64,000 nt of DNA, taken from positions 1 to 64,000 of the IMG/VR virus record IMGVR_UViG_3300037851_000572. One strand, written 5' to 3'. Source of the stretch: a virus. The position numbers and the translations under genes were made by a program. Every line of letters begins with the position of its first letter. Position 1 is the stretch's first letter. Shown here piece by piece: positions 3,080 to 52,983 of this stretch. The notes beneath the pieces were generated by a model. The model did not search any database. It worked only from the letters and a program-made list of their open reading frames with translations, and was not told where the DNA came from.

Positions 3080-3098
3080 GCCCTGGAGAATACACCAA

Positions 3099-34987: not shown

Positions 34988-35168
34988 CCAGGTCCCCCGC
35001 CACCACGCCGTGCCGAGCTGTGAAGTAGGTGTACGCCTTCTCCTCGAACTTGGGGATGGCGCTCTCCACATCCGACGCCGTGCTCTCCCGCCCGCTCTCC
35101 TGTCCCAACAGCCCTACGGCACGCTCTGGAGCCACCTCGCCCAAGGACACCTGCTTCTCGTTAGACAT
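34686..35168 (-). CDS. Hypothetical 160-aa protein (small-terminase candidate by position only)
   Basis: Start trimmed to MSNEKQVSLGEV. Overlaps the stop of the upstream gene. Confidence 0.55.
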   Translation of the reverse strand: MSNEKQVSLGEVAPERAVGLLGQESGRESTASDVESAIPKFEEKAYTYFTARHGVVAGDLVIQFFLPKVAVEAAKKGDATSQRKWESFWLETFRDQLSPVAKSYFHAEYPHLVAKYTEEVASWWFRARGYGDSVAPMALAEGFELRLNEALALALTTAQS

Positions 35169-36087: not shown

Positions 36088-36125
36088 GCACAGAAAGTGG
36101 CCGACTTCGGCCCCCGGGTCAAGAG

Positions 36126-36506
36126 CTAGTCGTCCGCAAGAGCGCCGATGGCGGCTCCACCAAGCCCCAGCGCCCCCAGACCACCAACTACTCCACCCAC
36201 AACCCGGGTGCCCTTCACGTGCGACTTCTCCTTCTCCAGAGCAGAAGTCAGGTGCTCCTTACGACGCTCGGCGGCGCGCATCTTAGCCACCGCATCCCCG
36301 CGCGACTTGTGGAGCTTCCTCGGCAGCGCGCTGAAGTGTCCCGCATGCCGTGCCCGAACAGCGTCCATGCCCTTCAGCTCCCGCTCCATCGCTCTGGCCC
36401 GGGAACCCGTGAGGCCTTGGAGAACACGCCCGAGCCCCCTGGCCTTACCGACCCCGGCTGCCTTCTCAATCTCCAGCAGTTCACGAAGTGTGTGCATCTC
36501 ACCCAT
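36126..36506 (-). CDS. Small basic protein with a C-terminal glycine zipper
   Basis: Start MGEMHTLREL overlaps the upstream stop. C-terminus VVGGVVGGLGALGLGGAAIGA. Confidence 0.55.
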   Translation of the reverse strand: MGEMHTLRELLEIEKAAGVGKARGLGRVLQGLTGSRARAMERELKGMDAVRARHAGHFSALPRKLHKSRGDAVAKMRAAERRKEHLTSALEKEKSHVKGTRVVGGVVGGLGALGLGGAAIGALADD

Positions 36507-38718
36507 CCTGGAACGCGAGGACCTTGAGCCCCTCGATGACCTCTTCCGTGGAGCGTACCGCGCGCTCGAGTGCGGTTGAGGAGACATCACTGACGCCGAC
36601 GCGGCTGGCGAGCAGGAGGTCGCACAGCTTCGTCTGCGAGTCCTCGAGCGTGGGCAGGTAGCTCACGAAGGTCATGAGGTTCTCGGGGTTGATGAAACCC
36701 AGAGAGAGCACCGTATCGACCGCCGTCGGGTCTGGGATGACCGCCGCTTCCTTCATCAGGTCCTTGCGGAACAGGGGGACCATATCGTGCAGCTCCGCAG
36801 CGCGTCGCTGCGCGTACGCCTCCTGCTCCGCCGCCAGCTTGATGGACCGCTTGGTGACCACCTTCACCGGCTCGTTGAGCGAGTGCCCGAGCTTCTCCAC
36901 CCCGTACCCCTGGTGCACCCCAAGGGCTGCCAGCAGGAACATGGCATCGTCGAGCCCGAGCATCTCCCGCTCCGCCGAGGCGAGCTTCGCCACCCCAGGG
37001 CCCGTGAAGGTGAAGCAGTCGTGGTCGCCCCGCACCCACACGTGGCTCTGCTTCTCCCCGCCGCCCTGACCCTCCCCGATGTCGGGCTCGTTGCTCTCCA
37101 TGTCTTCGGGGACCGCCTCCGAGGCGCCCTCGTGCCAGTCCTCCGGGGCCTCCTCCCCACCTTCGCCGCCCACCAGGGACACGGCGTTCGCGGTGCCCAA
37201 CGGCGTCCACTGCCAGTGGTCCGGCACGAGCACCTTACCCTCAGGCGACTGCATCACCGTCTGGATGTTGGGCTGCACGCTGACCTGGACCGGGCGGCCG
37301 TCGAACGTCTCCCCGATGAAGGTCGCGGGCTCCCCTGGGCTGGTGTAGGAGCCCCCGCCCAGCTCGAGCGGGATGGTGGCCTGCAGCTTGCCCTCGTCGG
37401 TGTGGCTGAAGAAGGCGCCGGTGCCGCCCACCATGCCGGTCGGAAGGCTCGCGCCGTCTCCCGCCGGCGTCCCGAGGATGTCCGGCTGTACGGCCGAGTG
37501 GGAGCCGTTGGTGAACATCGCCAGGGGCAAGGGCTGCCCGTCGACGTCGAGAAGGTTCGGGATGACGTACCCGATGAGCTCCTTACCCGACTCCTCGTCG
37601 ACGACCTTGTAGAGGCCGGATTCGTGCACAGGGAGCGCCTCCGGCGCATCGAGGGGGCTCCCCTCCTGTGCGTCCGCCCCATCCGCCATAGTGACCTGCC
37701 CCGCCTCATCAGCGGCCAGCGCTACCTTCTCCCCGAAGGACTGCACGACATCCCTGCGGGTGAGCGGGACGGTCATGGGACGCCAGTAGACGTGGCTCGC
37801 CGTCTTCATCAAGTAGCCGTCGTTGGTGCGCAGCAGCTGCACCACCGTCGGTTTGATGTGCAGAGCCAATGCCTCCGCCGTCTTCTCCACGCTCACCGGT
37901 TCGCGGTTCGCGAGCAGACCAAGCGGGCCCACCAGCGCCTGCGCGTTCACGCTGTACGCCGCCTGCAGCCCGCGGTCCCCCGCGAGCTTCTCGAAGAACC
38001 GGTCGATGTCCTCACGGTAGTAGGTATCGAACGTGGCCTGCAGCAGCGACGCCGTCTTGCGGAAGGCCACCTTCGAACGCGACGCCGTCTTCTTCATACT
38101 CGGCTTGGCGGCCTTCGCCTGCTTCGTGTAGCGGAAGCCCTGGTCGTGCCGCTCGAGCTCCTTGATGAGGAACTCCTCGAGGACGGAGCTCTGCTTGCCC
38201 ATGCCGCCGCCCATGCCGACGGTCATCCCACCACCGCCGAAGCCGTAGTTCTGGCGGTACGGCGGATAGAGCTGACCAATCATCGACTGGTCGCCCGGCG
38301 TCTGGCTGGTGACGTCGAAGGACTGCGGGCGGAAGAGCGACTGCCGCAGCCGGTTCTCCGTCAGGGGGAGCACCTTCGACTGGTCGCTCACCAACAGGTC
38401 GAACGGAGAGAGCTTCCGCTCCTTGATGACCACAGGGATGCGCACCGAGCGCATGCCCGCCGCCGCGAGCATGTCCGGGTCCGCGCTGTCCTGCGCCTCG
38501 GTCTTGTTGGTGAGCTCCACCTGCCCCAAGCCGTAGCCTCGCTCGCTGTCCACCTTCTCCATGGTGACGTGCGGCTGGAAGTCGGCGATGTACGGGACCT
38601 GCTGGTACAGCTCCTGGAGTACTTCCTGCGGCCACTGGTTGGGGTCTTCCGAGAGGTCGACCTCCCCAGCGGTCTTCTCGAACTCCACTTCCGGCTGAAT
38701 GAACAGGGGCTGCATCAT
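36499..38718 (-). CDS. Large hypothetical protein (about 740 aa)
   Basis: ATG at 38718 after GAGGAA (alternative GTG at 38730 in a GTGA overlap). Contains GFGGGGMTVGMGGGMG and VAKLASAE. Confidence 0.65.
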   Translation of the reverse strand: MMQPLFIQPEVEFEKTAGEVDLSEDPNQWPQEVLQELYQQVPYIADFQPHVTMEKVDSERGYGLGQVELTNKTEAQDSADPDMLAAAGMRSVRIPVVIKERKLSPFDLLVSDQSKVLPLTENRLRQSLFRPQSFDVTSQTPGDQSMIGQLYPPYRQNYGFGGGGMTVGMGGGMGKQSSVLEEFLIKELERHDQGFRYTKQAKAAKPSMKKTASRSKVAFRKTASLLQATFDTYYREDIDRFFEKLAGDRGLQAAYSVNAQALVGPLGLLANREPVSVEKTAEALALHIKPTVVQLLRTNDGYLMKTASHVYWRPMTVPLTRRDVVQSFGEKVALAADEAGQVTMADGADAQEGSPLDAPEALPVHESGLYKVVDEESGKELIGYVIPNLLDVDGQPLPLAMFTNGSHSAVQPDILGTPAGDGASLPTGMVGGTGAFFSHTDEGKLQATIPLELGGGSYTSPGEPATFIGETFDGRPVQVSVQPNIQTVMQSPEGKVLVPDHWQWTPLGTANAVSLVGGEGGEEAPEDWHEGASEAVPEDMESNEPDIGEGQGGGEKQSHVWVRGDHDCFTFTGPGVAKLASAEREMLGLDDAMFLLAALGVHQGYGVEKLGHSLNEPVKVVTKRSIKLAAEQEAYAQRRAAELHDMVPLFRKDLMKEAAVIPDPTAVDTVLSLGFINPENLMTFVSYLPTLEDSQTKLCDLLLASRVGVSDVSSTALERAVRSTEEVIEGLKVLAFQDG

Positions 38719-38726: not shown

Positions 38727-39398
38727 TCACGGCGGTACTCGGATTATGGCATCGAAACCGACCTTAGCAGAAGGCGCGGCCCCGAAGAGCAGGACACCGA
38801 AGACCCCGGGGGTGTCTACCCCGAGAGTAGCCGAGTCGGCCACAGCCTCTAGCTGCCCATTTGCAACCTCCCCGTCCAAGTAAGCGGAGACGGCGCGGAC
38901 TGTGGTGTCTGAGAACGCGATGCAGAAGATGGGACCGGCGTTAAGCGCAGCAGCGAAGCCGGCCGCCGCCTTGATGGCTGGAATCTTGATGGCCAGCGCC
39001 AGCTTGATGAGTACCTGGATGGAGCCGAGCTGAAGGGACAACGAAGCGGCAAGAGCCGCCGCCGCGGAGAGCTCCGCACCCAGCGATAGTTGGATGGGGG
39101 GCAGGCCGAGGGATAGCGCTGCCGCCAGAGCCGCCTGTAGTGAAGCCAGCGCAGCTATCGACGCCTTCAACGAGGCCACCAACCCGAAGTCCCCGATGCT
39201 CAGGCTGAGGGACAGGGAGGCCTGTAGCGCGAGAGCCGCATTGAACTGCGCACCGAGGGAGAGCCCGAAGGGCCCCAGCCCCAACGCGATGAGCGCGTCT
39301 ATCTGCGCCCCCAACGGATTGAGGAACGCCACAGCAGCTGCCGCCCCGATGTTGAAGTCGAGCAGCTTGAGGGCGCGGTATGCGTCGGGTAGCGGCAT
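38727..39398 (-). CDS. Ala/Leu/Ser-rich repeat protein
   Basis: Imperfect repeats of about 28-30 aa: LGAQIDALIALGLGPFGLS / LGAQFNAALALQASLSLSL / LKASIAALASLQAALAAALSLGL / LGAELSAAAALAASLSLQLG. Follows the spike gene directly. Confidence 0.6.
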   Translation of the reverse strand: MPLPDAYRALKLLDFNIGAAAAVAFLNPLGAQIDALIALGLGPFGLSLGAQFNAALALQASLSLSLSIGDFGLVASLKASIAALASLQAALAAALSLGLPPIQLSLGAELSAAAALAASLSLQLGSIQVLIKLALAIKIPAIKAAAGFAAALNAGPIFCIAFSDTTVRAVSAYLDGEVANGQLEAVADSATLGVDTPGVFGVLLFGAAPSAKVGFDAIIRVPP

Positions 39399-39399
39399 G

Positions 39400-40623
39400 T
39401 CAGACGAGGATGGTGGGGTTACCGGAGCTCACGACACCCGTCAGTATTTGTCCCGGGGTGACGGTGCCAGGGCCTGCCGGGGTGACTACAGCGAGGGGCA
39501 GGTCAATCATCACGCGAACAGTGGAGCCCACAGAAGCCACCGGCTTACCACCGCTGTTTAGCACCAAGCCTCCACCGCCGGTACCAAGCTCGGCGCCCTG
39601 CTTGCCCACGAGCCTGACCGTGCCCTCCGCCTCGAGGGAGACGTTCTTCCTGCAGAAGATGGTGATGTCGTCGTCGACTGTGAGGCGGAGCTTCTTCTTC
39701 ACCCGCAGGTTCACCGAGCCCTCCCAGCGAGCCATCATGCCGCCCGCGCGGTCAACGAAGATGCGCAGCTTCACATCGGCGGGGTCCGCCTTGAACTCCC
39801 CCGAGTCCGTCTCGAAGCCGTTCCTCGCCAGCGCGAGCTCGTACACCACCTGCTCCGACGTCCCTATCTCGAGCTGATTGTTGTTCGAGTCCTCCCCCGC
39901 ATCTCCCACTGGCTCCCCCGTAGGGGAGCGCACATACCCTACAGCGACACGGAGGTCAGCGTACTCGTCATTGGCGTAGACGCGGTACGTGCTCCTGCAC
40001 TCTGCCGTGGGGGCTTCGCTTCCTCGGTCTTGAATCCCCCAGTTGACGGAACCAGCCCCATTGAAGTGGTTGTAGTTCTGGCTGATGTCCGTCACCAGAT
40101 TCTGCAGCGGGATGCAGATGCGCTGCGCCAGCGGGCCCGAGCCGAACTGAGCCACGCCCCCTCGGTGCAGAATCATGAAGTTGCCGTCTCGCCCACGCGC
40201 AACGATGTCCCCGGGCTTGCCCCGCTTCCTACCGCCGGCGTAGGTGAAGTTGCTCTTCTCCGTCGTATCCTCACCCGAAGACGGCGTCTGCTGCGTGACC
40301 ATCGGCATGATGAACGCGAGCACGAAGGGAGGCGGACCGTCGGATGGGATGCAGATGAGGCACTTGGACCCCACTTCCGGAACGGCGTAGATGCCCTCCC
40401 CTTGATTGGGGTTCATGTACGGGCTCGCCACCTGAAGGTCGAGCATGGTCTTGCGGTCGAAGATGGTGGAGACGTCGACCGTCCAGTTCACCATGTTGAC
40501 GTTGAAGACGCGCGCCTCGTGGATGTAGGCGGGTACGGACCCCTCAGGCTGCACCCACCCAGAACGGCCGAAGCTCGTCCACGTGAGCGGGTTGAAGTAC
40601 GTTGTTAGTCCCTTGAGCGGCAT
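39400..40623 (-). CDS. Baseplate central spike (gpV / gp5-OB / VgrG-like)
   Basis: OB-fold pattern VFNVNMVNWTVDV...GEGIYAVPEVGSKCLICIPSDGPPPFVLAFI, then a beta-helix-like C-terminus. The ATG directly abuts the RNAP stop (TAGATG). Confidence 0.65.
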   Translation of the reverse strand: MPLKGLTTYFNPLTWTSFGRSGWVQPEGSVPAYIHEARVFNVNMVNWTVDVSTIFDRKTMLDLQVASPYMNPNQGEGIYAVPEVGSKCLICIPSDGPPPFVLAFIMPMVTQQTPSSGEDTTEKSNFTYAGGRKRGKPGDIVARGRDGNFMILHRGGVAQFGSGPLAQRICIPLQNLVTDISQNYNHFNGAGSVNWGIQDRGSEAPTAECRSTYRVYANDEYADLRVAVGYVRSPTGEPVGDAGEDSNNNQLEIGTSEQVVYELALARNGFETDSGEFKADPADVKLRIFVDRAGGMMARWEGSVNLRVKKKLRLTVDDDITIFCRKNVSLEAEGTVRLVGKQGAELGTGGGGLVLNSGGKPVASVGSTVRVMIDLPLAVVTPAGPGTVTPGQILTGVVSSGNPTILV

Positions 40624-43600
40624 CTAGTAGCTCCACGAGGGGAGGCCGGCGATGTGCGGAGGCTTGAACAGGCTCTTCTTCTTCGCCAACCCGAACTCTG
40701 CCCCGTACGCCATCCCCGGCGTGGGGTTGAGTCCGTGCAGGTCGGAGACGGCGCCCTCAGCTGCCGCGTCCGTCAGCGTCTTCGTCAACCGCTCGTGGTT
40801 GAGCTTCGCCATCCAATCCTCTTGGACGACCAGAGGCATGACGTCGATACCCTTGAGGACCGGTGTGTAGTCCGCCGGTCGCCGCCCCTGCTGAACCAGC
40901 GCCCGATTTGTGGCGCGCATCTCGGACGTAGGCTGAAACTCCCCCTTCAGCACGCCTTCCACGTCACCGGGGTGGGTCACCCTGGACACATTACCCAGTG
41001 CCCGCACCACCGTCTCGATGTGCTGGCGGCGAACGCCCTCTGGTTTGAAGATGGAGTGCAGCTCCGACGCCAGGTAGTTCTGCACCTTCTCGATGTTCCG
41101 CGTAGCTCGGTAGAGGTCGTGGGGGTTCACATGCGAACGCGTGGGGTCGCTGAGGGAGTGCCCCGCCTCCACCTTCATACCCACCACCGGGGGCGCCCAG
41201 CTGCCAACCGGTCCTACCGGAGAGAGCAGCGAACGGCCCGCGCGGTCGAATGGTACGAAGTGCTTCACGTCGTTGATGTAGACGTTGTGCCCGGTGCGCT
41301 CCGGCTCAATCTTGGTGATGGTACCTGAGGTCATCGCCAGCGCAGCCGCGTCCGGAATCTTCTTGGGCAGCAGTGTCAGCTGCTGCGTACGCTCGAAGGC
41401 GCCCAACGTCCCCGCACCACCAGTGCCCTTCACCCCACCCGAGTGGAACGCCTTGAGGGCTAGCTGCACCGAGCGCTCCCCGAGTGCCTGCGCCCCCAAG
41501 ACCCCCACGTTCGAGCCCAGGTCGTAGTACGTACCGTTCGGACTCAGCCCTGCGCACTTCTGGCACAGACCCTTCCCGTGCTCGCACTTCATCGCGGAGC
41601 GGACCACGACCTGCGCTCCCTTGTCCAAGCGGCGCATCTGCCCCACCACGTCGGGGCTGAGAACGGTGCCCGCTGGGAAGGTGCGGCCCTTCACCACAGC
41701 GTCAGCAGCTAGCTCTCGGTCGTAGACCTCCTCCTTACCGACGGGCATTCCGATGCCGCGGGAGGTACCGCAGTCGTGCCCTGTGACCACCAGGTTCATC
41801 GTGCTGTGGACCAACCGCTTGGAGAAGTAGCCCGGGTCTCGCACCTCCTGCACCTTCTGGATGGCGCCCTTCCTCGCACCGCTGGACTGAATCCAGTACC
41901 CGGCGAGGTCGAGGCCTTCGGAGTACGACTTCGTCACCGGCATCGGGATGGTGCGCCCACGCGCATCCTCCAGAAGCATGGGAGCGAGGCGCATCTGCTG
42001 GTACTGCTTCCAGCTGGGCTTGACGCCGGCGTCGAGCATCTTGAACAGGTTGTCCGACTTGGCTCCCGCCTTGGCCCGGTGCTCCTTCTCCATCTGCTCG
42101 GTGGCCTTCGTCCACTCCTCGATGGTGCGCACCTCCTTCTGCTCCGGGGTCAAGCTCCCACGACGGATGGCGTCGACACGCTTCTGCGTCTCCTGCACAA
42201 CCCGGTCCCGAACCTCACGGTCTGGACGGAAGTCCTCCAGCCCCAAGGAGTGCGTGCCCACGGGCACCACCTGCGACTGGGCGGGATTACTAGGATTGCG
42301 GAGCGTGATGTGCCCGTACGAGGCCTCGAAGCCGTAGTCCTTCAGCTTGTTGGCCGCGTCTGCGAAGTCCGCCTTGTGCTCCTTCGCGAGCTGACCGTAC
42401 AGCTCCCCCACCCCACGTGCGCTGAGCTTGAAGTCGTGGTCGTGCAACACCTTCGCCTGCATCGGCTTGGGCAGCGCGTCGGCAATCAGCACCCGACCTG
42501 GGGTGGTCTTCCCGTACCCTTCGATGTGGGCCAGCTCATCGATACGATGGGAGCCCGCCTGCACTGCCTTCATCGCATCGGCTGCGTTGGCGAAGCGCTT
42601 CTTCCCGCTGCCCGTCACCTGGGTCATCTTGTAGAGACCGAGCGCGCTGTCGAGCGTGGGGGTGAACGTCACCCTACCCGTCGCCTCGTTGAAGAGGTTG
42701 CGGGTGGGCATCATCCTGCGCGCCTCCTCCACCGCGTCGTCGCTGATGGGCACGTACATACTCATAGCGTCCCCATCGAAGTCAGCGTTGTATCCGCTGA
42801 CGACGAGCGGGTGCACCTTGATGGCCTTGCCTTTGGTGGGGCGCACGGTGAACGCCTGCACGTTGTGCTTGTGCAGAGCCGGGTCACGCTTCATCAAGAC
42901 GGGACGGTCCGCCACTGCCGCCTCGAGCGCCTTCTGCACACCAGCGTTCGTGTACGCCCCCTTCTTCGCCAGAATCTCCTGCGCCTCGAGGGGGTGCTTG
43001 GCCATCCCCAACGACACCATCTTCTGCACGACGAAGGGACGGTAGAGCGTGATGGCCTGCTCCCGAGGAACGGCCACCTCGTCCAACCCAAGCGCCGGCT
43101 CAGGGACAATGGTCGAGCGCATCGTCATGTCCTGACGACGGGACAGCAGCGTCTTCTGGAAGTAGCCCTCCTTAGGGGAGTTCCCAGAGATGAGCTGCAT
43201 GATGCCCTTGTTCTCGCCCTCCGACTCCGCCTTGGACCTGCCCACCCCAATGAGTGCCCGGAGCCCATCGTACTGGGCCCGACGCGACTCCCGGAGCTCC
43301 GCGTCGTCCACACCCAAATGCGACCGCTTCTTGTAGCCCTCCAACTGCCCGTTGTTCGCAGCGAAGTCCTTGTACAGCCCGTTGAGGTCCTCCCACCGGA
43401 CGCTGCCGTCTTGCATGACGCTCGGTGGACGCATCGCCGGGGGCAGCACGGGCACATTCCGCAGGACGTACGCCTCGTGCGGACGGATGTCCTTGGCGTG
43501 CAGCAGCCCCAGGTACTTGACCTTCTTCAGTGCCGTATCCAGCTTCTGCGTGGCCGCGCCGTGAGCGATGCCCGCTGGGATGCGCGCGTCGTCTAGCTCC

Positions 43601-46600
43601 TTCTGCGCCTTGGCTAGTTCCTTAGCCACGTCCAGCCGCTCGAGCGCGGCAGCGATAGCAGGACCGCCTGTCTCTCCCTTGCCCAGTGGGACCACCTTGC
43701 CGCGTGCATCCAGTGCGCTATCCCCACTGACAACCGCGTTGAACTGCGTCCCCGTCAGCCCGAGTACCTTCTTGATGGGCTCCTCGTAGACGGGATTCGG
43801 CATCGGCTCCGCCAGCTTGAAGTGCGACCACCGCTTGCCCCCTATCCCGCCGGTGGCTCGCTCATCGAACAGGCCGCCAGGGATAGGCTTCAGGCTACCG
43901 TCCCTGTCCAACGTGGTCGACGTCAAGCGGCTCGGCTGACGCAGCTCCCCGGCTGACATGGCAAGGATGTCCTTGTCGGTGAGGGGGGACAGCTGCAACT
44001 TGCTGCCCTTCTTCTCCACGTTGACGCCCGCCGCCCGCAGCATGTCGGTGAACTTCTGAAAGGCGAACGTCGGACGAGGAGCGGGCAGCGGCAGCCCCTG
44101 CTGGATGTTGTTCCACACCTCGTGGTGCTGACTGGGCCACTTCTTGCCCTCGGGTGCTGGGTCGGGCCCCTCACTCTTCCACGTCTGCATCTCCCGGATG
44201 TTGGCGGTGGCGCCGTGCGCCAGCAGCACGTTGATGCCGAGACTGCCGATGGACTGCCCGCTCGCCTTGCCGCCACTCGTTGGCTGCAGGTTGATGTCGT
44301 AGGTCTCCGGTGTCTCTCCACGCAGCGTCATGCCCGAGCGCGCCAACGCTTTCTTGTCGACCTGATGGTGGAGCTTCAGCATGTGCTGATACCCCACGAG
44401 CGCCTTGCCTAGCGACTTGCCCGTTGCTGGGTCGATGAGCTCCTCTTGGTCCTGAAGACCTCGCGCCGCCAGCTCCTTCTGCATGCGACCGACCTGGTCG
44501 ACCCCGTGCTCGAAGTTGTCGATGATGAAGGGCTTGCCGTCCTTCTTCGCTATCTTGGACGCGACGGTCTCCAACACCTGCCCGATGTTCATGCGACCCG
44601 GGATGCCAGACGGGTTCAGCGCTACCTGGATGCGCTCGCCGCCTTTGGTGACCGGCATCTCCTCGTCCGGCACCACCTTCGTGACGATGCCCTTGTTGCC
44701 GTGCCTGCCCGTAATCTTGTCGCCCACCTGCATGGGCTCCACGGTACGGACGTGGACGCTGACCTCTCCCCGCTTATTCCGATACACGCCCACCACTTCA
44801 CCGGCGTGGCTGCTGTCCCAGCGAAGGGACGCGTCGGTCTGCTGCCCCGACAGACTGCGCCGGATGCGGGCGATGCCAGACCGGTCGTTTATCTGAACCT
44901 GGCGCGTGTTCAGAACGAGCGGGTCGCCCGGCAGCACCTTCTGCCCGACGCGCACCACGCCATCATCCCCTAACTTCTCGTACTGCTCCTTGCGGTACGC
45001 CTCCGGGTGCTGAATCTGGAACTTCTTCGGGTTCCCTACGTCCCCCTCCTGCACCTTTAGCTGGGGCTTGTGCATGTGCACGGAGCGGAGGCTGTGCGCG
45101 GCGCTCTCGCTGATGACCACGCCGTCCTCGAAGTTGTACCCCTTGTACGGAATGTAGGCGACGGTGAGGTTCTTCCCCAGCGCCAGCGTGCCCCCGCGCG
45201 TGTAGTTGTTGTCGGCGACGTTCTGCCCCGCACTCACGCGGTCGCCGACCTTCACGGTCGGCGTGGAGTCCATCACGCTCTTCGAGTCGTTGAGCGGGAA
45301 GTTGTTGTACAGTTGCACCCTGTGCTGCTTGCCATCCTCACCCCGGATGACGACACCACGCTCCTTGTCTGCGTGCAGCACCGTCCCCGCCACCGGCGCG
45401 CTGTGCGCTGAGTGGCGCCCCACGAACTCCTCGTAGGAGCGCACGCCCTTGCCACCCGTCCCCACCTGAACCAGCGGAACATCACGGTCCTCCAGACTGA
45501 TGGCCTGCTCGAGGTGGCTCGTGGCGTAGGTGGCGCGGTTGCCCGAGTTGTTCCCCATGAACGGGATGAGGTTGGACGTCATGGAGAACGCCTGCGACGG
45601 GTGGTACATCGCGTAGTCGGCGTCCTTGAACGGTTGCTCCTCGAGCTCGTTCTTCACAGACGACACCTTCACCGTCGAAGAGACGGGACGGGGGCGCTGG
45701 TCGTCCCCCCACTTCACCTGGTCGGGGAGCACGACGCTGGAGCGCATGAACGTCCGCGGCCCGATGAGCTCCTTCTTCCCCGTCCGCAGGTTGTAGACGG
45801 GAATCATCGGCTCCTTGCCCACCTTCTTTACGCCGATGGGTAGGTGCAGAGTCACCCCCGTCTTGCTGTTCCCGAGCCACACCGGCCTCTTTCCGTTACG
45901 ACGCACGTACAGAAAGGTCCCCGGAACGGAAGCGCAGTACACGTCACCGGCGTAGTCCACGGTGTAGTAGGGAGAGTGTCGGGTTCTCGACGAAGTCTGG
46001 GAAGAACACTCTGACTTCCGAAGTAGCCGTACCTCGTACACGTCTAGGTAGCGCTCCTGCCTCTTGTCCTCGTACCTCTTGAGCGTCGTGGGATACCCCA
46101 AAGAAATGGCGAGCTGCTCCACCTCAGTAGCCAACCGAGCGGAAGTGGTGGTGTACGACGCGGAGTTCTGCTTTACCCGAGCGTGCGTGGTCGTCAGCCT
46201 GCCATCCCCCCACAGCAACGCGTCAAGAAGACGGCGACGTGCGGTCAGAGGCCACTGAAGAAAGCCAGACGGAAGCCTCTTCTCGGAAGCGGTGGTGCCA
46301 AGCTGCTGCATGTAGTGCGCTAGCTGCTTCACCCCTATGGTGTACCTGTTCCGACCCTCCTCCCTCTTCGAAACACTCCAAGAGTAGGGGAGCTGACTAA
46401 GCAACCAAACAATACGACTGCAGCAGTCCGCGTTGCAGTCGCTCTGAAATAGGTGGACGTGGTACGTGGAAGATTCCTCGTCGTAGCGGCAGTGGCCCTC
46501 GCTAACGAACCATCCCACCAACTCTGCCCACAGCTCAAAGGGCACGGAGTCAACATTGACGCTAGAGTTATTCCCCTCAACAACCGGCACGTAGAACAAC

Positions 46601-48102
46601 GGTTGCTCAACCGTCTCTAGCGGGTCGTGCGCACTCCTGAACTTTCGAGGCTTGCCGTGCATCTCCGCAGCACTGACCACCCTGTATGCACTACCCTTAT
46701 CAAAGGGGCGGCACAACATTCGGTGGTTGGGGGTAACCAGATACTCAAGCTGCGGGCGACGCAGCCCGTACATCCGTCCCTCGTACTTGTAGCGCTGTAG
46801 CTCCGTGGCGGGGTGAAACTCCAGCTTCCCCCCGATTAGACATGCGAATCGCGTGCTCTCCGTGACATGCGGCCAAAGAACCCACCCCGTCTCCGTAAAC
46901 ACCTCGGTCTGCTCGTCGAAGCAGCCTTCGGGTGTGTGGAGAGGGTCGAGGAACCCAAGGTGGCTCGGGTTGATGAGCTTCGCCTCGTCCACGATGGCAT
47001 TCTCGCTCTTGATGCCACCGGGCCCCATGATGGTCGTGGCCATGGAGGAGGAGACCATCTCCACCGGATTCAGTTGGTCTGCCGTCCTCACCGCGGCATT
47101 CTTCTTGAACGTGTCGAGGAGCGGCTTGTTGAACAACTCCGTGCGGACCACGTCGCGCGGAGAGCTAGCGGTGTTTATCTGGCGCAGCATCTTGGCCTTC
47201 AGGCTCCGCTGCACCCGCCAGTCCGTCAGCTTGTCGTAGGCGTAGTCGCCCACGCTACGCAGGTCCTTGAAGACCAGATTGTCCCGGTCATCTTCCGGAA
47301 CCTTGCCCGCCTGTACCTGCAGCATCTTCGCAGTGGCGCGGGTCAGAACGTCACCGTCGACAGCCCGAAAGGGCTTGCCCAGCGTCAGCTCCGTAGAGTC
47401 CGGGTGTAGCTCCGACCCCGCTAGCACCTCTCGAGCATAGGAGGCTGCTACCTCCCTGGACGAGGGTGCGCTCTTGCGGTCCGCCTTGTAGAAGCGCTCG
47501 AGCGCTGTGGAGGCACCGCGCGCCTGCCGGTTCGCCTCCAGCACATCCTTGCCCCAATGCTTCTCCAGAGTGTCGTCGTCGACCCCCATCGCCTTCATCA
47601 ACGGGTAGACAGGAATGGCCTTCGACTTCCCCCGCTCCATCATGAAGTGCTTCGTGGCTGGGTCGAACGTCACGTCGAAGTCGGGGCGGTTGGTGATGTT
47701 GAACCGCGTCTCGAGCTCTCCCGATTCACGACGCTTGGTGTACACCCCCGGCTTCAGCTGCCACTGGCTGTCGACTTGGTACTCCTGCCCGCCAACGATG
47801 TAGCTGTACCTGCGCGTGACGAGCGGCAGCTCGCCTACGTGCAGCTTCTGCACCACCTCTTTGCCCGTGTCCTTGTGCTTCAGCGCCAGGGTTGCGTAGA
47901 TGGGTCGGCTGAAGGTGCTCCCCTCCACCTTCGCCTTGTGCTGCCCCTCGATGTCGTCGTGCGCCCCCTTGTCAGCGGCTACCTCCAGCCCCTTCAGCAC
48001 CAAGGTGTGCTCGCGTCCCTCCACTGGAAAGTGCGCGCGGATACCCGCCAGAGCGCGCTCTTTAAGGTCCTCGAACGCCTCCTCGTGGTCCAGGTACGCC
48101 AT
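40624..48102 (-). CDS. Single-chain multisubunit-type RNA polymerase: beta-like and beta-prime-like modules fused, with an intein in beta
   Basis: Beta blocks: DPLHTPEG, NLIPFMGNNSGNRATYATSHLEQA, KGYNFEDGVVISE, GRHGNKG (44689-44709), LNPSGIPGRMNIGQVLE, MLKLHHQVDKKALARS. Beta-prime blocks: VLPPAMRP, PVLMKRDPALHKHNVQAF, NADFDGD (42769-42789), GARKGAIQKV..GYFSKRLVH. Junction near residue 1370 (about 43990). Confidence 0.9.
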   Translation of the reverse strand: MAYLDHEEAFEDLKERALAGIRAHFPVEGREHTLVLKGLEVAADKGAHDDIEGQHKAKVEGSTFSRPIYATLALKHKDTGKEVVQKLHVGELPLVTRRYSYIVGGQEYQVDSQWQLKPGVYTKRRESGELETRFNITNRPDFDVTFDPATKHFMMERGKSKAIPVYPLMKAMGVDDDTLEKHWGKDVLEANRQARGASTALERFYKADRKSAPSSREVAASYAREVLAGSELHPDSTELTLGKPFRAVDGDVLTRATAKMLQVQAGKVPEDDRDNLVFKDLRSVGDYAYDKLTDWRVQRSLKAKMLRQINTASSPRDVVRTELFNKPLLDTFKKNAAVRTADQLNPVEMVSSSMATTIMGPGGIKSENAIVDEAKLINPSHLGFLDPLHTPEGCFDEQTEVFTETGWVLWPHVTESTRFACLIGGKLEFHPATELQRYKYEGRMYGLRRPQLEYLVTPNHRMLCRPFDKGSAYRVVSAAEMHGKPRKFRSAHDPLETVEQPLFYVPVVEGNNSSVNVDSVPFELWAELVGWFVSEGHCRYDEESSTYHVHLFQSDCNADCCSRIVWLLSQLPYSWSVSKREEGRNRYTIGVKQLAHYMQQLGTTASEKRLPSGFLQWPLTARRRLLDALLWGDGRLTTTHARVKQNSASYTTTSARLATEVEQLAISLGYPTTLKRYEDKRQERYLDVYEVRLLRKSECSSQTSSRTRHSPYYTVDYAGDVYCASVPGTFLYVRRNGKRPVWLGNSKTGVTLHLPIGVKKVGKEPMIPVYNLRTGKKELIGPRTFMRSSVVLPDQVKWGDDQRPRPVSSTVKVSSVKNELEEQPFKDADYAMYHPSQAFSMTSNLIPFMGNNSGNRATYATSHLEQAISLEDRDVPLVQVGTGGKGVRSYEEFVGRHSAHSAPVAGTVLHADKERGVVIRGEDGKQHRVQLYNNFPLNDSKSVMDSTPTVKVGDRVSAGQNVADNNYTRGGTLALGKNLTVAYIPYKGYNFEDGVVISESAAHSLRSVHMHKPQLKVQEGDVGNPKKFQIQHPEAYRKEQYEKLGDDGVVRVGQKVLPGDPLVLNTRQVQINDRSGIARIRRSLSGQQTDASLRWDSSHAGEVVGVYRNKRGEVSVHVRTVEPMQVGDKITGRHGNKGIVTKVVPDEEMPVTKGGERIQVALNPSGIPGRMNIGQVLETVASKIAKKDGKPFIIDNFEHGVDQVGRMQKELAARGLQDQEELIDPATGKSLGKALVGYQHMLKLHHQVDKKALARSGMTLRGETPETYDINLQPTSGGKASGQSIGSLGINVLLAHGATANIREMQTWKSEGPDPAPEGKKWPSQHHEVWNNIQQGLPLPAPRPTFAFQKFTDMLRAAGVNVEKKGSKLQLSPLTDKDILAMSAGELRQPSRLTSTTLDRDGSLKPIPGGLFDERATGGIGGKRWSHFKLAEPMPNPVYEEPIKKVLGLTGTQFNAVVSGDSALDARGKVVPLGKGETGGPAIAAALERLDVAKELAKAQKELDDARIPAGIAHGAATQKLDTALKKVKYLGLLHAKDIRPHEAYVLRNVPVLPPAMRPPSVMQDGSVRWEDLNGLYKDFAANNGQLEGYKKRSHLGVDDAELRESRRAQYDGLRALIGVGRSKAESEGENKGIMQLISGNSPKEGYFQKTLLSRRQDMTMRSTIVPEPALGLDEVAVPREQAITLYRPFVVQKMVSLGMAKHPLEAQEILAKKGAYTNAGVQKALEAAVADRPVLMKRDPALHKHNVQAFTVRPTKGKAIKVHPLVVSGYNADFDGDAMSMYVPISDDAVEEARRMMPTRNLFNEATGRVTFTPTLDSALGLYKMTQVTGSGKKRFANAADAMKAVQAGSHRIDELAHIEGYGKTTPGRVLIADALPKPMQAKVLHDHDFKLSARGVGELYGQLAKEHKADFADAANKLKDYGFEASYGHITLRNPSNPAQSQVVPVGTHSLGLEDFRPDREVRDRVVQETQKRVDAIRRGSLTPEQKEVRTIEEWTKATEQMEKEHRAKAGAKSDNLFKMLDAGVKPSWKQYQQMRLAPMLLEDARGRTIPMPVTKSYSEGLDLAGYWIQSSGARKGAIQKVQEVRDPGYFSKRLVHSTMNLVVTGHDCGTSRGIGMPVGKEEVYDRELAADAVVKGRTFPAGTVLSPDVVGQMRRLDKGAQVVVRSAMKCEHGKGLCQKCAGLSPNGTYYDLGSNVGVLGAQALGERSVQLALKAFHSGGVKGTGGAGTLGAFERTQQLTLLPKKIPDAAALAMTSGTITKIEPERTGHNVYINDVKHFVPFDRAGRSLLSPVGPVGSWAPPVVGMKVEAGHSLSDPTRSHVNPHDLYRATRNIEKVQNYLASELHSIFKPEGVRRQHIETVVRALGNVSRVTHPGDVEGVLKGEFQPTSEMRATNRALVQQGRRPADYTPVLKGIDVMPLVVQEDWMAKLNHERLTKTLTDAAAEGAVSDLHGLNPTPGMAYGAEFGLAKKKSLFKPPHIAGLPSWSY
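45868..46923 (-). mobile_element. Intein with LAGLIDADG domain (352 aa) in the RNAP beta module
   Basis: Starts CFDEQTEVFTETG immediately after TPEG (Cys codon 46921-46923) and ends PVWLGN|S (Asn codon 45868-45870). LAGLIDADG motifs LVGWFVSEGHC and LLDALLWGDGRL. GC lower than the flanks. Confidence 0.85.
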
Positions 48103-48104
48103 GG

Positions 48105-48121
48105 GCTAGAGGGATTCTAGC
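48105..48121 (-). promoter_or_regulatory. Inverted repeat GCTAGA-GGGAT-TCTAGC 3 nt upstream of the RNAP start codon
   Basis: Perfect 6-bp arms. No Shine-Dalgarno between it and the ATG at 48102. Minus-strand TAGAAT lies within it. Confidence 0.3.
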
Positions 48122-48164
48122 GTACTCCCCAACGAGAACCAGACGCAAGGACAGAGAGCGGAGC

Positions 48165-48187
48165 GCGATAAGAGCTGTGAAGGAGCC
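48165..48187 (+). promoter_or_regulatory. Plus-strand promoter-like motif copy 4 (GCGATAAGAGCTGTGAAGGAGCC)
   Basis: Lies in the divergent gap between the RNAP gene (-) and the plus-strand block. Confidence 0.4.
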
Positions 48188-48213
48188 ACATCGGCTCAAC
48201 CCAAGGAGGAATC

Positions 48214-48336
48214 ATGGGAAACAGCGGGCGCGAGATGGAGAAGGACCGGGACGAGCTTTTTGGTGGTCCCCTCGAGACCAGCGAACCCGACGACGACGAA
48301 GAGGAGGACGAAGAAGAGGAGGGGGACGTCAGCTAG
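48214..48336 (+). CDS. Possible 40-aa highly acidic peptide
   Basis: Very strong RBS CAAGGAGGAATC before the ATG. MGNSGREMEKDRDELFGGPLETSEPDDDEEEDEEEEGDVS. Below the ORF-track cutoff. Confidence 0.4.
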   Translation: MGNSGREMEKDRDELFGGPLETSEPDDDEEEDEEEEGDVS

Positions 48337-48456: not shown

Positions 48457-49017
48457 ATGCTGTCCGAGTTGTTCGGGCTGGTGGGGGTCTCCATCGAGGA
48501 CCCTCACCAACCTGACCGGCAGTGGACCATCTCTAATCTCTTCGCCCCCGTTTCCGGGAGGGCACTGGGAGGAATCCGAGCGAAGCTCGTCGACGAGCAA
48601 GGCTTCATCACGTTCGTGAACCAGCGCGACCTCGAGTTGCTACTAGACCTCGCTCGTCCGGGAGCGTGGTGCGAGTGGTCGGGGAGCCTCTATCCAGGCG
48701 TGACCTGCGCGGACGAGGGGTGGTTCGGCTTCTGCGTCGACGATGTCGACCTCGCAGACGACCTGCAAGAACGGGAGCTAGTTCTGCGACAACAGTATGG
48801 CGGAGTACTCCCGAACAACATTGAGCTCTCTCGACTCGTGCACGCTGAGCACGACCTCGATTACTCCGAGCTCCTGCTGTTGCTCTGGGACCGAGACTTC
48901 GACACCGGATACAGCCCAGACCCACGAGTGGAAACCATCAACCGCCGCTGGGTACAGGTAGAAAGGACCAAGGTCAGATGGAAAGCCTCGGCGTGCCGCA
49001 GCCCGTGGGGCCGCTGA
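48457..49017 (+). CDS. Hypothetical 186-aa protein
   Basis: Start trimmed to MLSELFGLVG. Confidence 0.55.
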   Translation: MLSELFGLVGVSIEDPHQPDRQWTISNLFAPVSGRALGGIRAKLVDEQGFITFVNQRDLELLLDLARPGAWCEWSGSLYPGVTCADEGWFGFCVDDVDLADDLQERELVLRQQYGGVLPNNIELSRLVHAEHDLDYSELLLLLWDRDFDTGYSPDPRVETINRRWVQVERTKVRWKASACRSPWGR

Positions 49018-49577
49018 ACTCGCTGTACTACTCGGGGAAGATTTGTGCTGACTGCGAAGAGGCCCTTCTTCTGGGAGAAGGCGTCGTTGTAGTGCAGGTG
49101 GTCATCCCGCAGACGACCGAAGGGCGCATCAGCTTCGCCGACTTCGAGAACCCCGACGGCTCGTACGCGTACGAGCCCTTCATCTTCCACAGCCACTGCT
49201 GGGAGGTGAACTACGAGAGATTGACGGAGGAGCTGGAGGAGCAGGCCTGCGAAGCCGTCGCGGACCCCCGCGCCTTCAGGAAGTGCAGCGCCTGCAGCAG
49301 CGGTCTGCTGCTCGGGGAACCCGTAGGTCTTGCCACCTACGGGCTCCTGTCCACCTCCAAGCGCACGCCCAACGGAGACCCCAGCATCGTGTTCGAGCGG
49401 AGCCAGGTGCAGAAGTGCCTGTGCCTATCTTGCCTCCGCACCCTGAACGAGGAGGTCATCGAGATGTGGGAGACCCTCTCCTACTCCGGTGAGTGCTCCC
49501 TCTGTACTTACGAACGACGATGGCGCACGGGGACCCCGTGTGACCACGAGGAAGAGGAAGAAGATGGCGACACTTGA
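48978..49577 (+). CDS. Cys-rich (multi-CxxC) putative zinc-binding protein
   Basis: Contains CADC, HSHC, CSAC, CLCLSC and CSLC, with an acidic tail. Confidence 0.6.
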   Translation: MESLGVPQPVGPLNSLYYSGKICADCEEALLLGEGVVVVQVVIPQTTEGRISFADFENPDGSYAYEPFIFHSHCWEVNYERLTEELEEQACEAVADPRAFRKCSACSSGLLLGEPVGLATYGLLSTSKRTPNGDPSIVFERSQVQKCLCLSCLRTLNEEVIEMWETLSYSGECSLCTYERRWRTGTPCDHEEEEEDGDT

Positions 49578-50751
49578 GCAACTCATCGTGACCGCGCTCA
49601 TGACCCCGAGGACCGACCCCCAGTCCACCACCTGCGTCTGGGGGCTCCCGGTCAACATCGTTGGGCTGTCCGGCTGTGGAAAGTCGGAGCGCGTCGTGGA
49701 GGCGTGCAGAATCCTGCAGCTCCCCTACCAGGTACTGTTCCTCGCCTCGAAGCAGCCCGAGGACATCGGTGGCGCCCCCTGCCACACCCCCGACGGCATC
49801 GTGATGGAGTGCATCCTCCCGCAGGCCAACAAGCTGATGCACGCTGGAACGGGGGTGCTGTTCATCGACGAGCTCAGCACCGCCCGTCCTGCGGTGCAGG
49901 CCGCTGCTCTGGGGCTCGTCAACGACCGGCGGGTGGGCGACCACCTGCTGCCGCCAAGGGTGCGCATCCTCTGCGCGATGAACCCGGCCGAGTACGCCGC
50001 CGGCGGCTTCACCCTCGAGGCCCCACTGGCGAACCGCATGCTGCACTTCTCTTACGAGGTGCCGACGTCAGACCAGTGGGTGGACTGGCTCATCGAGAGC
50101 ACGCCACAGTCGCTCCCCACCATCACCGGCGCGGAGCAGATGATACTCAGCGGCTGGGGCCAGCAGTGGTCCCACGTCCGTGGGCTGCTCGTGGGGTTCA
50201 TGAAGGCGAAGGGCAACCTGCTGCACATGCAGCCGAAGCCCGACGACCCCAACGCAGGAGGCCCCTGGCCCAGCCACCGCATGTGGAACTGGGCTGGTCG
50301 AGCCGTGGCCGCTGCCCGCTGCCTCAACATGCCCCCCGACCTGGACAACCAGCTCGTGCAGGGCTGTGTTGGCGAGGGCGTGATGGTGGAGTGGGCCACC
50401 TGGGTAGCCAACAACGACCTGCCGGCTCCAGAGGACATGCTCACCAAGGGGTGGAAGCCAGACCGCTCGCGTCTGGACATCACCATCGGTGCGCTCGCCT
50501 CGATGTCGCTGTGGATTAAGGGGCTGCAGGACAAAACCAAGCAGACGAACCTGCTGCCGGCGGCGTGGGAGCTCATCCAGCGGACCATCGACGAGAAGAT
50601 GCCTGACCTCGCCGTCCGGCCAGCGGCGACGCTGGTCACCGCTGGCCTGGCAAACACGCACAAGGACCCCCGAGTGAAGGAAGCGTGCAAGGAGCCCATC
50701 CGAAACTTGGGCAAGGGCGGCTTCTCCCGATTCCAAGGGGTCGCCGTATGA
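49564..50751 (+). CDS. MoxR-like AAA+ ATPase (AAA_5 type)
   Basis: Walker A GLSGCGKSE and Walker B VLFIDELS. Start at MATLEQL. Confidence 0.8.
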   Translation: MATLEQLIVTALMTPRTDPQSTTCVWGLPVNIVGLSGCGKSERVVEACRILQLPYQVLFLASKQPEDIGGAPCHTPDGIVMECILPQANKLMHAGTGVLFIDELSTARPAVQAAALGLVNDRRVGDHLLPPRVRILCAMNPAEYAAGGFTLEAPLANRMLHFSYEVPTSDQWVDWLIESTPQSLPTITGAEQMILSGWGQQWSHVRGLLVGFMKAKGNLLHMQPKPDDPNAGGPWPSHRMWNWAGRAVAAARCLNMPPDLDNQLVQGCVGEGVMVEWATWVANNDLPAPEDMLTKGWKPDRSRLDITIGALASMSLWIKGLQDKTKQTNLLPAAWELIQRTIDEKMPDLAVRPAATLVTAGLANTHKDPRVKEACKEPIRNLGKGGFSRFQGVAV

Positions 50752-52881: not shown

Positions 52882-52983
52882 GCTATCCTCCTGTCAGAGC
52901 GACGGGCATGGTGTCCGGGGAGAGCCCGGAACGGGGTATTGCTGTTCAACCCTCATGAAACACCCGCCGCTCGCATTTTCTAG

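Follow-up and report, generated by a model that had tools for sequence, protein, structure and literature searches.

A single-chain bacterial-type RNA polymerase gene at the head of a putative morphogenesis operon in a large uncultured phage, and its possible packaging into virions

In N4, phiKZ/AR9, crAss-like phages and P23-45, the genes for the virion RNA polymerases (RNAPs) all lie within or alongside the late virion genes. In an uncultured contractile-tailed phage with a genome of ~190 kb (G+C 64%), an RNAP gene lies directly against a spike gene on the same strand as the structural genes, which raises the question of whether this enzyme too is carried in the particle and injected. An initial annotation had proposed as much from gene order. 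We examined a 64-kb stretch of this genome (the window, to which all coordinates refer) and compared it with 79 related IMG/VR loci; homologue counts are given out of 80.

The RNAP ORF joins beta and beta' modules in a single chain (Table 1). It was matched by the Pfam models Rpb2_6 (2e-63, aa 904-1256), Rpb1_2 (6e-26) and Rpb1_5 (1e-17), with further matches to Rpb2_2 and Rpb2_3 (both weaker than Rpb2_6), Rpb1_1 and Rpb1_3, and by PHROG RNAP beta families. The beta' module is collinear with residues ~150-514 of bacterial beta' without large gaps (phmmer against Francisella and E. coli, E-values 1e-46 to 1e-48), and the aligned stretch includes the clamp-helix segment, the place where sigma would dock. 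It is a multisubunit-type enzyme of the bacterial beta/beta' lineage in which both double-psi beta-barrels are recognizable, and the Mg-binding NADFDGD motif of the beta' barrel is intact. Extra terminal domains comparable to the encapsidation and injection domains of the N4 virion RNAP (vRNAP) were not found in it. Full-length homologues with no internal stops are present in three related loci (L077, L074 and L001), and all three lack a 352-residue insertion that interrupts a conserved beta-module motif (HTPEG/C...N/SKTG) and that we identify as an intein; its removal would leave a protein of about 2,140 residues. The intein has a weak LAGLIDADG_3 match (aa 623-694), while Pfam splicing-domain models fell below threshold for this copy.

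Table 1. Features of the RNAP locus and its surroundings, in window coordinates
Feature	Position	Strand	Basis or remark
Sheath	9251-12730	-	
Major capsid protein	19566-20696	-	phrog_2522 only
Large terminase (TerL) with LAGLIDADG-endonuclease intein	31351-34455	-	phrog_675 9e-50; Pfam
~176-aa protein directly upstream of TerL	34686-35216	-	synteny in 27 loci
Conserved 308-aa protein, no assigned function	35161-36087	-	homologue in 42/80 loci
Small ORF, ~126 aa, Gly/Ala-rich with hydrophobic C-terminus	36126-36506	-	sequence reading
Clade-specific 739-aa protein, no assigned function	36499-38718	-	homologue in 68/80 loci
Ala/Leu-rich 223-aa protein, no assigned function	38727-39398	-	conserved in closer subclade
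Central membrane-piercing spike (gpV/gp5/VgrG-like), 407 aa	39400-40623	-	AF2 and Foldseek; weak profile matches
Single-chain beta-beta' fusion RNAP, 2,492 aa	40624-48102	-	Pfam, PHROG, NADFDGD, alignment; first gene of operon
Catalytic NADFDGD of beta' module (aa 1772)	42769-42789	-	regex on translation; aligns with bacterial NADFDGD
Intein, 352 aa (aa 394-745, Cys1 ... Asn/Ser junction)	45868-46923	-	insertion relative to intein-free homologues
Putative sigma70-like promoter of RNAP operon: TTGCGT (48143-48148), 18-nt spacer, TACGCT (48119-48124)	48119-48148	-	
Divergent GGGATAAGA-class promoter-like element: CGCAAG, 17 nt, GATAAGA	48144-48173	+	
Portal-like 1,108-aa protein with LAGLIDADG insertion	53310-56636	-	tblastn to Arash Gp204; LAGLIDADG_3 match
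Second putative promoter of the sigma70-like class (TTGCTC-17-TACGCT)	59948-59976	-	13 nt ahead of the first ATG of the portal operon (59934)

The RNAP stop codon had been described as running straight into the start codon of a tail spike gene, and the junction reads exactly so: CATCTA on the plus strand at 40621-40626 is TAG/ATG on the minus strand, the two ORFs have a 0-nt gap between them, and the GGAG ribosome-binding site of the downstream gene falls within the final RNAP codons (W-S-Y). The name given to the downstream product needs one correction: judged by its fold, this 407-residue protein is a central cell-puncturing spike, and a receptor-binding tailspike was rejected on that ground. 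Its AF2 model (pLDDT 67.6, a moderate confidence) suggests an OB-fold at the N-terminus with a beta-helical or needle region behind it at the C-terminus, and a Foldseek search with it returned ten different central-spike structures at probabilities of 0.85-1.0 and E-values of 4e-4 to 3e-2, the top matches including the phi812 baseplate, the Algoriphagus eCIS spike, VgrS, phi92 gp138, the Mu and P1 baseplates, P2 gpV and the R2 pyocin spike. The TM-scores were low, as expected for a single chain of an intertwined trimer. Profile searches of the PDB gave weak VgrG matches (E-values 0.011-0.022), and hhalign paired the spike with gp0283 of Vibrio phage D69, whose gene stands two places ahead of a PAAR gene, at 85% probability and an E-value of 6.5e-6. 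A PAAR gene was not found in the 64-kb window. A spike homologue follows RNAP in 57/80 loci, and the stop and start codons overlap or lie no more than 5 nt apart in 14 of the 15 loci that could be scored; the arrangement is, by these sequence comparisons, conserved beyond chance. The adjacency is limited to this lineage, the D69 homologue lying ~15 kb further down the structural block.

Every recognizable virion or packaging gene of the window (major capsid, sheath, TerL and the portal-like gene) is on the minus strand, so the RNAP gene, as had been claimed, is co-oriented with a virion module within which it lies. The claim that one coupled block extends from RNAP to the terminase also held. 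The packing is tight, the successive intergenic spacings toward TerL being 0, 1 and ~8 nt, an overlap (the start of the ~126-residue ORF overlaps the stop of the 739-residue gene), 38 nt and a further overlap; the block is interrupted only by a weak hairpin (36099-36112) and by a 230-nt gap before TerL. Because abutting stop and start codons are common throughout this block, the RNAP-spike junction on its own shows only that the RNAP gene is an ordinary operon member. Pfam matches in TerL were to Intein_splicing, LAGLIDADG_3, GpA_ATPase and Terminase_6C, and the position of the ~176-residue protein, which matched no family, suggests a small terminase. The major capsid protein had no Pfam match, and the 223- and 308-residue proteins had none in Pfam, PHROG or the PDB. 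The 739-residue protein is the most widely conserved neighbor of RNAP and has 518 database relatives; its AF2 model (pLDDT 69.5) gave no informative fold match in the PDB or BFVD.

The order portal, RNAP, spike, 739-residue protein, terminase was found in most of the 79 related loci, and with the 308-residue protein placed before TerL it is kept even where RNAP identity is below 40%. A portal-like homologue was found in 66/80 loci; among more distant relatives it sits immediately ahead of RNAP and is read in the same direction. The nearest cultured relatives are Salmonella phage Arash, whose Gp204 is annotated as the portal protein, and Vibrio phages D69, D181 and D148. In Arash and D69, as here, a bacterial-type beta/beta' RNAP heads the structural block, there directly after portal, and the placement of RNAP between portal and terminase is thus conserved across a large uncultured clade and in these distant cultured relatives.

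A conserved promoter-like motif, TTGCnn-N18-TAcgCT, ends about 8-16 nt before the RNAP ATG; in the window 16 nt lie between its -10 element and the ATG, and no Shine-Dalgarno sequence is present. In its looser form, TTGnnn-N18-TAnnnT within 40 nt of the ATG, it occurs in 30/58 homologous upstream regions, whereas shuffled sequences gave 3.3 on average and 9 at most. The strict motif (TTGCnn-17/18-TAcgCT) is found only twice in the window, before the RNAP operon and before the portal operon, and 13 of its 25 matches in related loci are directly upstream of RNAP. At the portal-operon position TTGnnn-17/18-TAnnnT occurs in 14/20 loci, and in low-GC relatives the motif before RNAP nears TTGACT-16-TATAAT. 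We infer that the motif before RNAP acts as a promoter, in which case the RNAP gene would head its own transcription unit, a feature that is new here. Its sigma70-like form means that the gene could be transcribed by host holoenzyme, possibly early.

A different class of element precedes genes on the other strand. Its two-block form is cGCAArrA-N13-GGGATAAGA, and it is limited to the strand opposite RNAP, before small ORFs and MoxR/VWA, helicase and UDG genes; 22 of the 24 exact GGGATAAGA copies in related loci are on that strand. The two promoter classes are thereby split by strand and by gene type, one preceding the RNAP and portal operons and the other the plus-strand non-structural genes. 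The earlier observation that no GGGATAAGA-type site is directed toward RNAP was borne out, with the nuance that a variant, GCGATAAGA (48165-48173), occurs on the opposite strand 63 nt ahead of the gene and is directed away from it. It belongs to a divergent element that faces small plus-strand ORFs and MoxR/VWA genes, and the upstream block of this element occupies the same base pairs as the -35 element of the RNAP promoter. The motif before the portal operon is likewise back-to-back with a GGTATAAGA element (59994-60002, plus strand). The two-block, sigma-type architecture of the GGGATAAGA class suggests recognition by a sigma-dependent holoenzyme rather than by a sigma-free enzyme in the manner of N4 or phiKZ.

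Taken together, the layout fits an RNAP that is packed into particles and injected, a plausible reading to which we give a probability of about 55%. The gene-order argument for it in the initial annotation holds and is strengthened by the conserved portal-terminase position and by an operon promoter class distinct from GGGATAAGA. What follows on timing of expression, packaging, injection and the pairing of enzyme with promoter is our inference. RNAP comes first in a long minus-strand morphogenesis operon, ahead of the central spike, three conserved proteins without known function, the probable small terminase and TerL, after which come the genes for head and tail. A sigma70-like promoter, of a type shared with the portal operon, would drive this unit and yield an almost leaderless mRNA. 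RNAP would then be made late and, since it would be synthesized alongside virion components, with its translation coupled to theirs, incorporation into particles would be its most likely use. Delivered with the DNA, it could start transcription of the non-structural genes from the phage-specific two-block promoter. The clamp-helix region kept in beta' and the -35/-10 geometry of both promoter classes suggest that it would work as a holoenzyme with sigma-family factors and not sigma-free. Experimental support for packaging comes solely, by analogy, from the distant relative Arash, whose RNAP is ~33% identical and split in two genes. The RNAP protein Gp206 gave more spectra (3,516) than any other protein in purified Arash particles, the C-terminal beta' piece Gp216 gave 1,210 and a sigma factor, Gp10, was also present (PMC10585845). 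Among the 116 proteins of that sucrose-gradient preparation were ribonucleotide reductases, ligases and kinases (PMC10585845), and with so many non-structural enzymes carry-over of abundant cytoplasmic proteins is possible.

The same promoter data could be read as a cascade in the style of T7, in which host RNAP with sigma70 would make the phage RNAP early or continuously, and the new enzyme with a phage sigma would then transcribe the GGGATAAGA-class genes without being packaged, its place before spike and terminase reflecting operon economy or read-through. The canonical -35/-10 geometry directly before the RNAP ATG in 30/58 regions, which comes near TTGACT/TATAAT in low-GC relatives, suits this, as do the first place of RNAP in its unit (it would be made first), the weak hairpin after the fifth gene of the unit (the ~126-residue ORF) and just before the 308-residue gene, and the lack of an obvious packaging domain. 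We nonetheless consider it rather unlikely, if a serious contender, because the portal operon is headed by the same promoter class, so that helicase and UDG would appear only after portal, spike and terminase, an inverted programme; the conserved translational coupling of RNAP to spike and the richness of Arash particles in RNAP and a sigma factor also tell against it. That the gene merely landed beside the spike at random, the abutting codons being usual phage packing, is the least credible explanation. Abutting or overlapping stop/start pairs are indeed common throughout the block and the spike does not adjoin RNAP in D69 or Arash, but the synteny data already disfavor it, as the portal-terminase placement persists in the cultured relatives and in loci whose RNAP identity is as low as ~33-40%, and the dedicated promoter-like motif before RNAP is conserved.

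Two further possibilities would extend the packaged-enzyme reading. In one, which refines that reading and does not contradict it, the packaged RNAP would serve the first round and, with a late sigma, would also read the sigma70-like structural promoters including its own, so that one polymerase with exchangeable sigma factors would run the whole programme largely independently of host RNAP. D69 and Arash carry sigma-factor genes but only one RNAP locus apiece, and the retained bacterial-type clamp-helix region and the two distinct two-block promoter classes would suit such a scheme; no sigma gene was found in the 64-kb window, and we regard it as improbable. It is scarcely likely that RNAP is cargo of the puncturing device, held in a physical complex with the spike or in the tail lumen and not simply packed in the head. 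The stop/start overlap would then reflect an RNAP-spike complex, by analogy with the effector-VgrG gene pairs of type VI secretion systems (T6SS) and the tape-measure-fused RNAP of P23-45, and if so the DNA would be preceded into the cell by a sigma-dependent holoenzyme of bacterial type.

Returning to the packaged enzyme, we compared the locus with known systems. The Arash/D69 group are myoviruses of ~180-187 kb with one RNAP locus per genome (D69, Arash). RNAP identity to them is only ~31-33%, their enzyme is divided into beta plus N-terminal beta' and C-terminal beta' whereas here it is one chain, and their spike homologue is far downstream beside the PAAR gene instead of adjoining RNAP; the 739-residue neighbor was not detected in them by tblastn. 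The mReC phages of Weinheimer & Aylward 2020, several of which have large genomes, are Caudovirales whose beta/beta' homologues are likewise detectable by cellular models (COG0085/COG0086 there, Pfam here). In the listed mReC contigs beta and beta' are separate genes, G+C is low, the capsid is of T4 type (PF07068/VOG11186) and the terminase matches PF03237, unlike the fused enzyme, 64% G+C, phrog_2522-only capsid and GpA_ATPase/Terminase_6C TerL found here; the phage thus lacks the mReC combination of a PF07068/VOG11186 capsid with a PF03237-type terminase.

Among established virion polymerases, those of phiKZ/AR9 (Chimalliviridae, PBS1-like) share the multisubunit-family architecture with two double-psi beta-barrels and are made late, packaged and injected to read early genes from phage-specific promoters (PMC7598289, PMC7824862). 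They consist of four or five polypeptides, are highly divergent and sigma-free, and have a second, non-virion RNAP as partner; in contrast, the RNAP of this phage is a single chain, is easily detected by Pfam cellular-RNAP models and keeps the clamp-helix region, and the cultured relatives of its phage have a single copy. The crAss-like phi14:2 gp66 is, as here, one very large polypeptide with both barrels and with its gene in the virion module, and it is packaged (10.1101/2020.03.07.982082; PMC7481178), but it has no HMM-detectable beta/beta' similarity (PMC7481178), whereas the RNAP here reaches 2e-63 on Rpb2_6. The vRNAP of coliphage N4 (gp50), an analogy already drawn in the initial annotation, is also a giant enzyme encoded among late virion genes; after packaging it is ejected and reads early promoters (PMC13434306). 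It has a single-subunit T7-like palm fold, unrelated to that of the RNAP here, and dedicated N- and C-terminal domains for injection and encapsidation. In Thermus phage P23-45 a two-barrel RNAP is tied, both physically and genetically, to a tail component that is first out of the virion (PMC10770324). There RNAP and tape measure protein form one in-frame fusion; here the RNAP is a protein of its own, tied to the central spike only by the translational coupling of its gene.

The 2,492-residue RNAP of the window (64% G+C) matched beta-subunit domains of Pfam in its first half (Rpb2_2, Rpb2_3 and Rpb2_6, the last at 2e-63) and beta'-subunit domains in its second half (Rpb1_1, Rpb1_2 (6e-26), Rpb1_3 and Rpb1_5). 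Since the beta domains are followed by beta' domains and the PHROG matches were consistent with this assignment, the protein is a single-chain beta-beta' fusion, in which both large subunits of a cellular-type RNAP are joined in one polypeptide. Our first guess from the size of the protein had been an N4-like single-subunit vRNAP; this was ruled out by the beta and beta' matches in Pfam and PHROG, and the enzyme is neither N4- nor T7-like. The catalytic motif NADFDGD was intact at residue 1772, and the beta' part aligned collinearly with residues ~150-514 of bacterial beta', including the clamp-helix segment, which in the bacterial subunit is the docking site of sigma. Relative to three intein-free homologues, residues 394-745 form a 352-residue insertion, which is an intein because it begins with Cys and ends in Asn followed by Ser, interrupts the conserved motif HTPEG-SKTG between its two halves, and contains a weak LAGLIDADG match. 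This single 64-kb window has four insertions of intein type that bear LAGLIDADG endonuclease signatures (see table), and homologues differed in length by 1-3 kb among related loci, which suggests that the inteins are mobile across the clade.

The initial annotation had the RNAP gene abutting a tail spike gene, and the junction was as described: plus-strand CATCTA at 40621-40626 reads TAG followed by ATG on the coding strand, so that the 407-residue spike ORF begins one base past the RNAP stop, and the GGAG ribosome-binding site of the spike sits within the final RNAP codons. The spike had no match in Pfam or PHROG; it had 421 database relatives, and an AlphaFold model built on 32 relatives was of moderate confidence (pLDDT 67.6). 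Foldseek matches to this model were nearly all central membrane-piercing proteins (probability 0.85-1.0), among them the phi812 baseplate, the Algoriphagus contractile-injection-system spike, VgrS, VgrG1 and phi92 gp138, with further matches to the Mu and P1 baseplates, P2 gpV and the R2 pyocin spike. Searching the PDB with the sequence profile gave weak VgrG matches (E-values of 0.011 and 0.022), and hhalign gave a probability of 85% against gp0283 of Vibrio phage D69, a distant cultured relative in which this gene lies two genes ahead of an annotated PAAR gene. From the model and these matches we conclude that the 407-residue protein is a putative central cell-puncturing spike. A receptor-binding tailspike was ruled out, as the fold matches were to central piercing spikes only, and in that sense the earlier label "tail spike" does not hold.

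The same-strand block that had been described from the RNAP to the terminase was also confirmed, and it continues into the genes for the major capsid protein and tail sheath farther downstream. After the spike come genes for an Ala/Leu-rich 223-residue protein and for proteins of 739, 126, 308 and ~176 residues, then the large terminase (phrog_675, 9e-50), which has an intein inside. Spacing from the RNAP to the 176-residue gene ranged from overlap up to 38 nt, and the sole breaks in the block were a weak hairpin (36099-36112) and a stretch of 230 nt ahead of the terminase. An apparent 411-nt non-coding gap 3' of the 739-residue gene turned out to be filled by the 126-residue ORF, which is missing in the closest relative (L077), where the spacer is ~70 nt. 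In fold searches of PDB and BFVD the 739-residue protein had no informative match, and profile searches of the PDB with the 308- and 223-residue proteins gave none.

Full-length relatives of the fused RNAP were found on 172 IMG/VR stretches at 33%-68% identity, many on contigs of 175-200 kb (the contig of the window is 190,441 bp). We searched all window proteins by tblastn against 80 loci (79 from IMG/VR plus the region of Salmonella phage Arash) and found a conserved order of portal-like protein, RNAP, spike, 739-residue protein, 308-residue protein and terminase. The spike followed the RNAP in 57 of the 80 loci; the 739-residue protein was found in 68, the terminase in 55 and the upstream portal-like protein in 66. 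For 15 loci both gene ends were placeable, and in 14 of these the stop of the RNAP and the start of the spike overlapped (TGATG or TAATG) or lay no more than 5 nt apart. In a closer subclade the portal and RNAP genes are separated by an opposite-strand MoxR/VWA cassette restricted to that subclade, whereas in more distant loci the portal lies 5' of the RNAP on the same strand. The nearest cultured relatives were Vibrio phages D69, D181 and D148 and Arash (RNAP identity ~31-33%), in which the RNAP directly follows the portal gene and heads the structural block, but is split over two genes rather than forming a single chain. A 20-kb part of the window was without a megablast match among GenBank phages, and tblastn of the spike and the 739-residue protein against GenBank phage isolates detected no homologue. 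One scan of genome contigs was without a match and the other returned only three MAG contigs, with relatives of the 739-residue protein; their bins (Deltaproteobacteria, Myxococcales and Anaerolineales) are a weak hint to the host range of the high-G+C clade.

We infer two classes of promoter. The motif that precedes plus-strand non-structural genes, GGGATAAGA, is genuine: allowing one mismatch, it had 16 matches where 6.7 were expected. Seven of its plus-strand sites (1620, 1986, 3853, 48165, 52162, 59994 and 63615) are intergenic or at a gene boundary (3853, 63615) and stand 15-45 nt ahead of a plus-strand start codon. Because cGCAArrA lies exactly 13 nt 5' of five of the seven, the element is a promoter-like signal of two blocks (CGCAAG, 17 nt, GATAAG). 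Exact copies in related loci were on the strand opposite the RNAP in 22 of 24 cases, and, in agreement with the initial annotation, no site in the window is aimed at the RNAP; however, the copy at 48165, the variant GCGATAAGA, lies 63 nt 5' of the RNAP start on the other strand. The first gene 3' of this outward-facing element is a very acidic ORF of ~40 residues.

The RNAP start itself is preceded, at 16 nt from the ATG, by the end of a sigma70-like signal (TTGCGT-18 nt-TACGCT), with no Shine-Dalgarno sequence. Among 58 homologous upstream regions, 30 had TTGnnn-N18-TAnnnT no farther than 40 nt from the RNAP start (shuffled sequences: mean 3.3, maximum 9), the spacer in relatives being 18 nt with one exception and the -10 end mostly 8-16 nt from the ATG. 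The window has one other copy of the strict motif, which stands 13 nt ahead of the ATG that opens the portal operon (59934), a position at which 14 of 20 related loci carry a similar signal and a low-G+C relative carries TTGACT-16-TATAAT. In both divergent control regions the base pairs that make up the TTGC of the sigma70-like promoter also make up the GCAA of the GGGATAAGA-class element facing the other way; the two predicted classes are built back-to-back, an arrangement kept in relatives. A late-promoter candidate, TAGAATCCC, showed no enrichment (5 matches, with 6.5 expected), and a scan of 34-53.5 kb for generic sigma70 promoters and terminators stayed at background, save for weak hairpins.

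Coordinates of features in the window
Feature	Position	Strand	Remarks
RNAP	40624-48102	-	
Spike	39400-40623	-	
Intein-type insertion, RNAP	45868-46923	-	LAGLIDADG signature
Large terminase with intein-type insertion	31351-34455	-	LAGLIDADG signature
1,097-residue structural-block protein (homologue of Arash Gp222) with intein-type insertion	24446-27739	-	LAGLIDADG signature
Portal-like protein with intein-type insertion	53310-56636	-	LAGLIDADG signature
126-residue ORF	36126-36506	-	Gly/Ala-rich hydrophobic C-terminus; overlaps stop of 739-residue gene
Divergent control regions	48103-48214 and 59935-60042		Predicted sigma70-like promoter toward structural genes, GGGATAAGA-class toward non-structural genes
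Acidic ORF, ~40 residues	48215-48337	+	Strong AAGGAGG ribosome-binding site
Portal-RNAP cassette	48978-52109	+	199-residue protein, MoxR-type AAA_5 ATPase, VWA/DUF2201 metallopeptidase-like protein
Two tRNA genes	52983-53058 and 53102-53178	-	End of portal operon; ARAGORN, both confirmed by Rfam
Papain-family cysteine protease homologue	725-1615	+	Peptidase_C1, 3e-13; window end
Probable endolysin	2285-3187	-	PG_binding_1 and Peptidase_M15_4

That such a gene order marks an RNAP that is packaged and injected, as the initial annotation proposed, is partly supported, and we put it at a probability of about 0.55: the virion-operon layout and the RNAP of Arash particles speak for it, and the sigma70-like promoter and a possibly contaminated Arash preparation against it. 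The RNAP would be expressed from a promoter class common to the portal operon and translationally coupled to a baseplate component, the spike; for a polymerase made alongside virion parts, the next infection is the only point at which it would be of obvious use. The virion RNAPs of N4, phiKZ/AR9, crAss-like phages and P23-45 have the same made-with-virion-parts arrangement (PMC7598289; PMC10770324). In gradient-purified Arash particles Gp206, one of the two pieces of the RNAP, gave more spectra (3,516) than any other protein, the other piece, Gp216, had 1,210 spectra, sigma factor Gp10 was also detected, and the authors themselves propose an early-transcription role (PMC10585845). However, that preparation comprised 116 proteins, clearly non-structural enzymes among them (PMC10585845), and Arash is only distantly related.

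The sigma70-like promoter ahead of the RNAP would also suit a T7-style cascade, in which host holoenzyme might transcribe the RNAP gene early, but this would place expression of the portal, spike and terminase before that of the helicase and UDG genes. A sigma-dependent holoenzyme appears likelier than an enzyme that works without sigma, as in the N4/phiKZ type, given the -35/-10 geometry of both predicted promoter classes and the bacterial clamp helices that the RNAP keeps. No sigma-factor gene was seen among the window ORFs scanned, gene content here covering the 64-kb window, or about one third of the genome.

Virion-delivered RNAPs are known in four unrelated designs, those of N4, phiKZ/AR9, crAss-like phages and P23-45. 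If packaged, the RNAP described here would be a fifth: a single chain, close to bacterial beta-beta' and probably sigma-dependent, carried by widespread, wholly uncultured ~190-kb myoviruses (172 IMG/VR loci, hundreds of protein clusters). This would bear on phage independence from host transcription and on how a ~240-kDa cellular-type polymerase could be packaged and ejected; the back-to-back promoter classes offer concrete in vitro templates, and with Arash and D69 in culture the question is open to experiment. When we searched the literature for accounts of a phage RNAP that is fused and of bacterial type, or of how it is packaged, only two papers came up, the one on mReC and the one on Arash with its proteome table. 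The mReC phages (2020) have cellular-like beta and beta' genes; in the listed contigs beta and beta' are encoded separately, G+C is low, the capsid is of T4 type and the terminase is PF03237, and membership is not established since the window phage, with its fused RNAP and 64% G+C, is without those features.

Of the tRNA pair that closes the portal operon, one has a four-base anticodon, 'gcaa', with no identity called by ARAGORN, and the other is a tRNA-Val(AAC).
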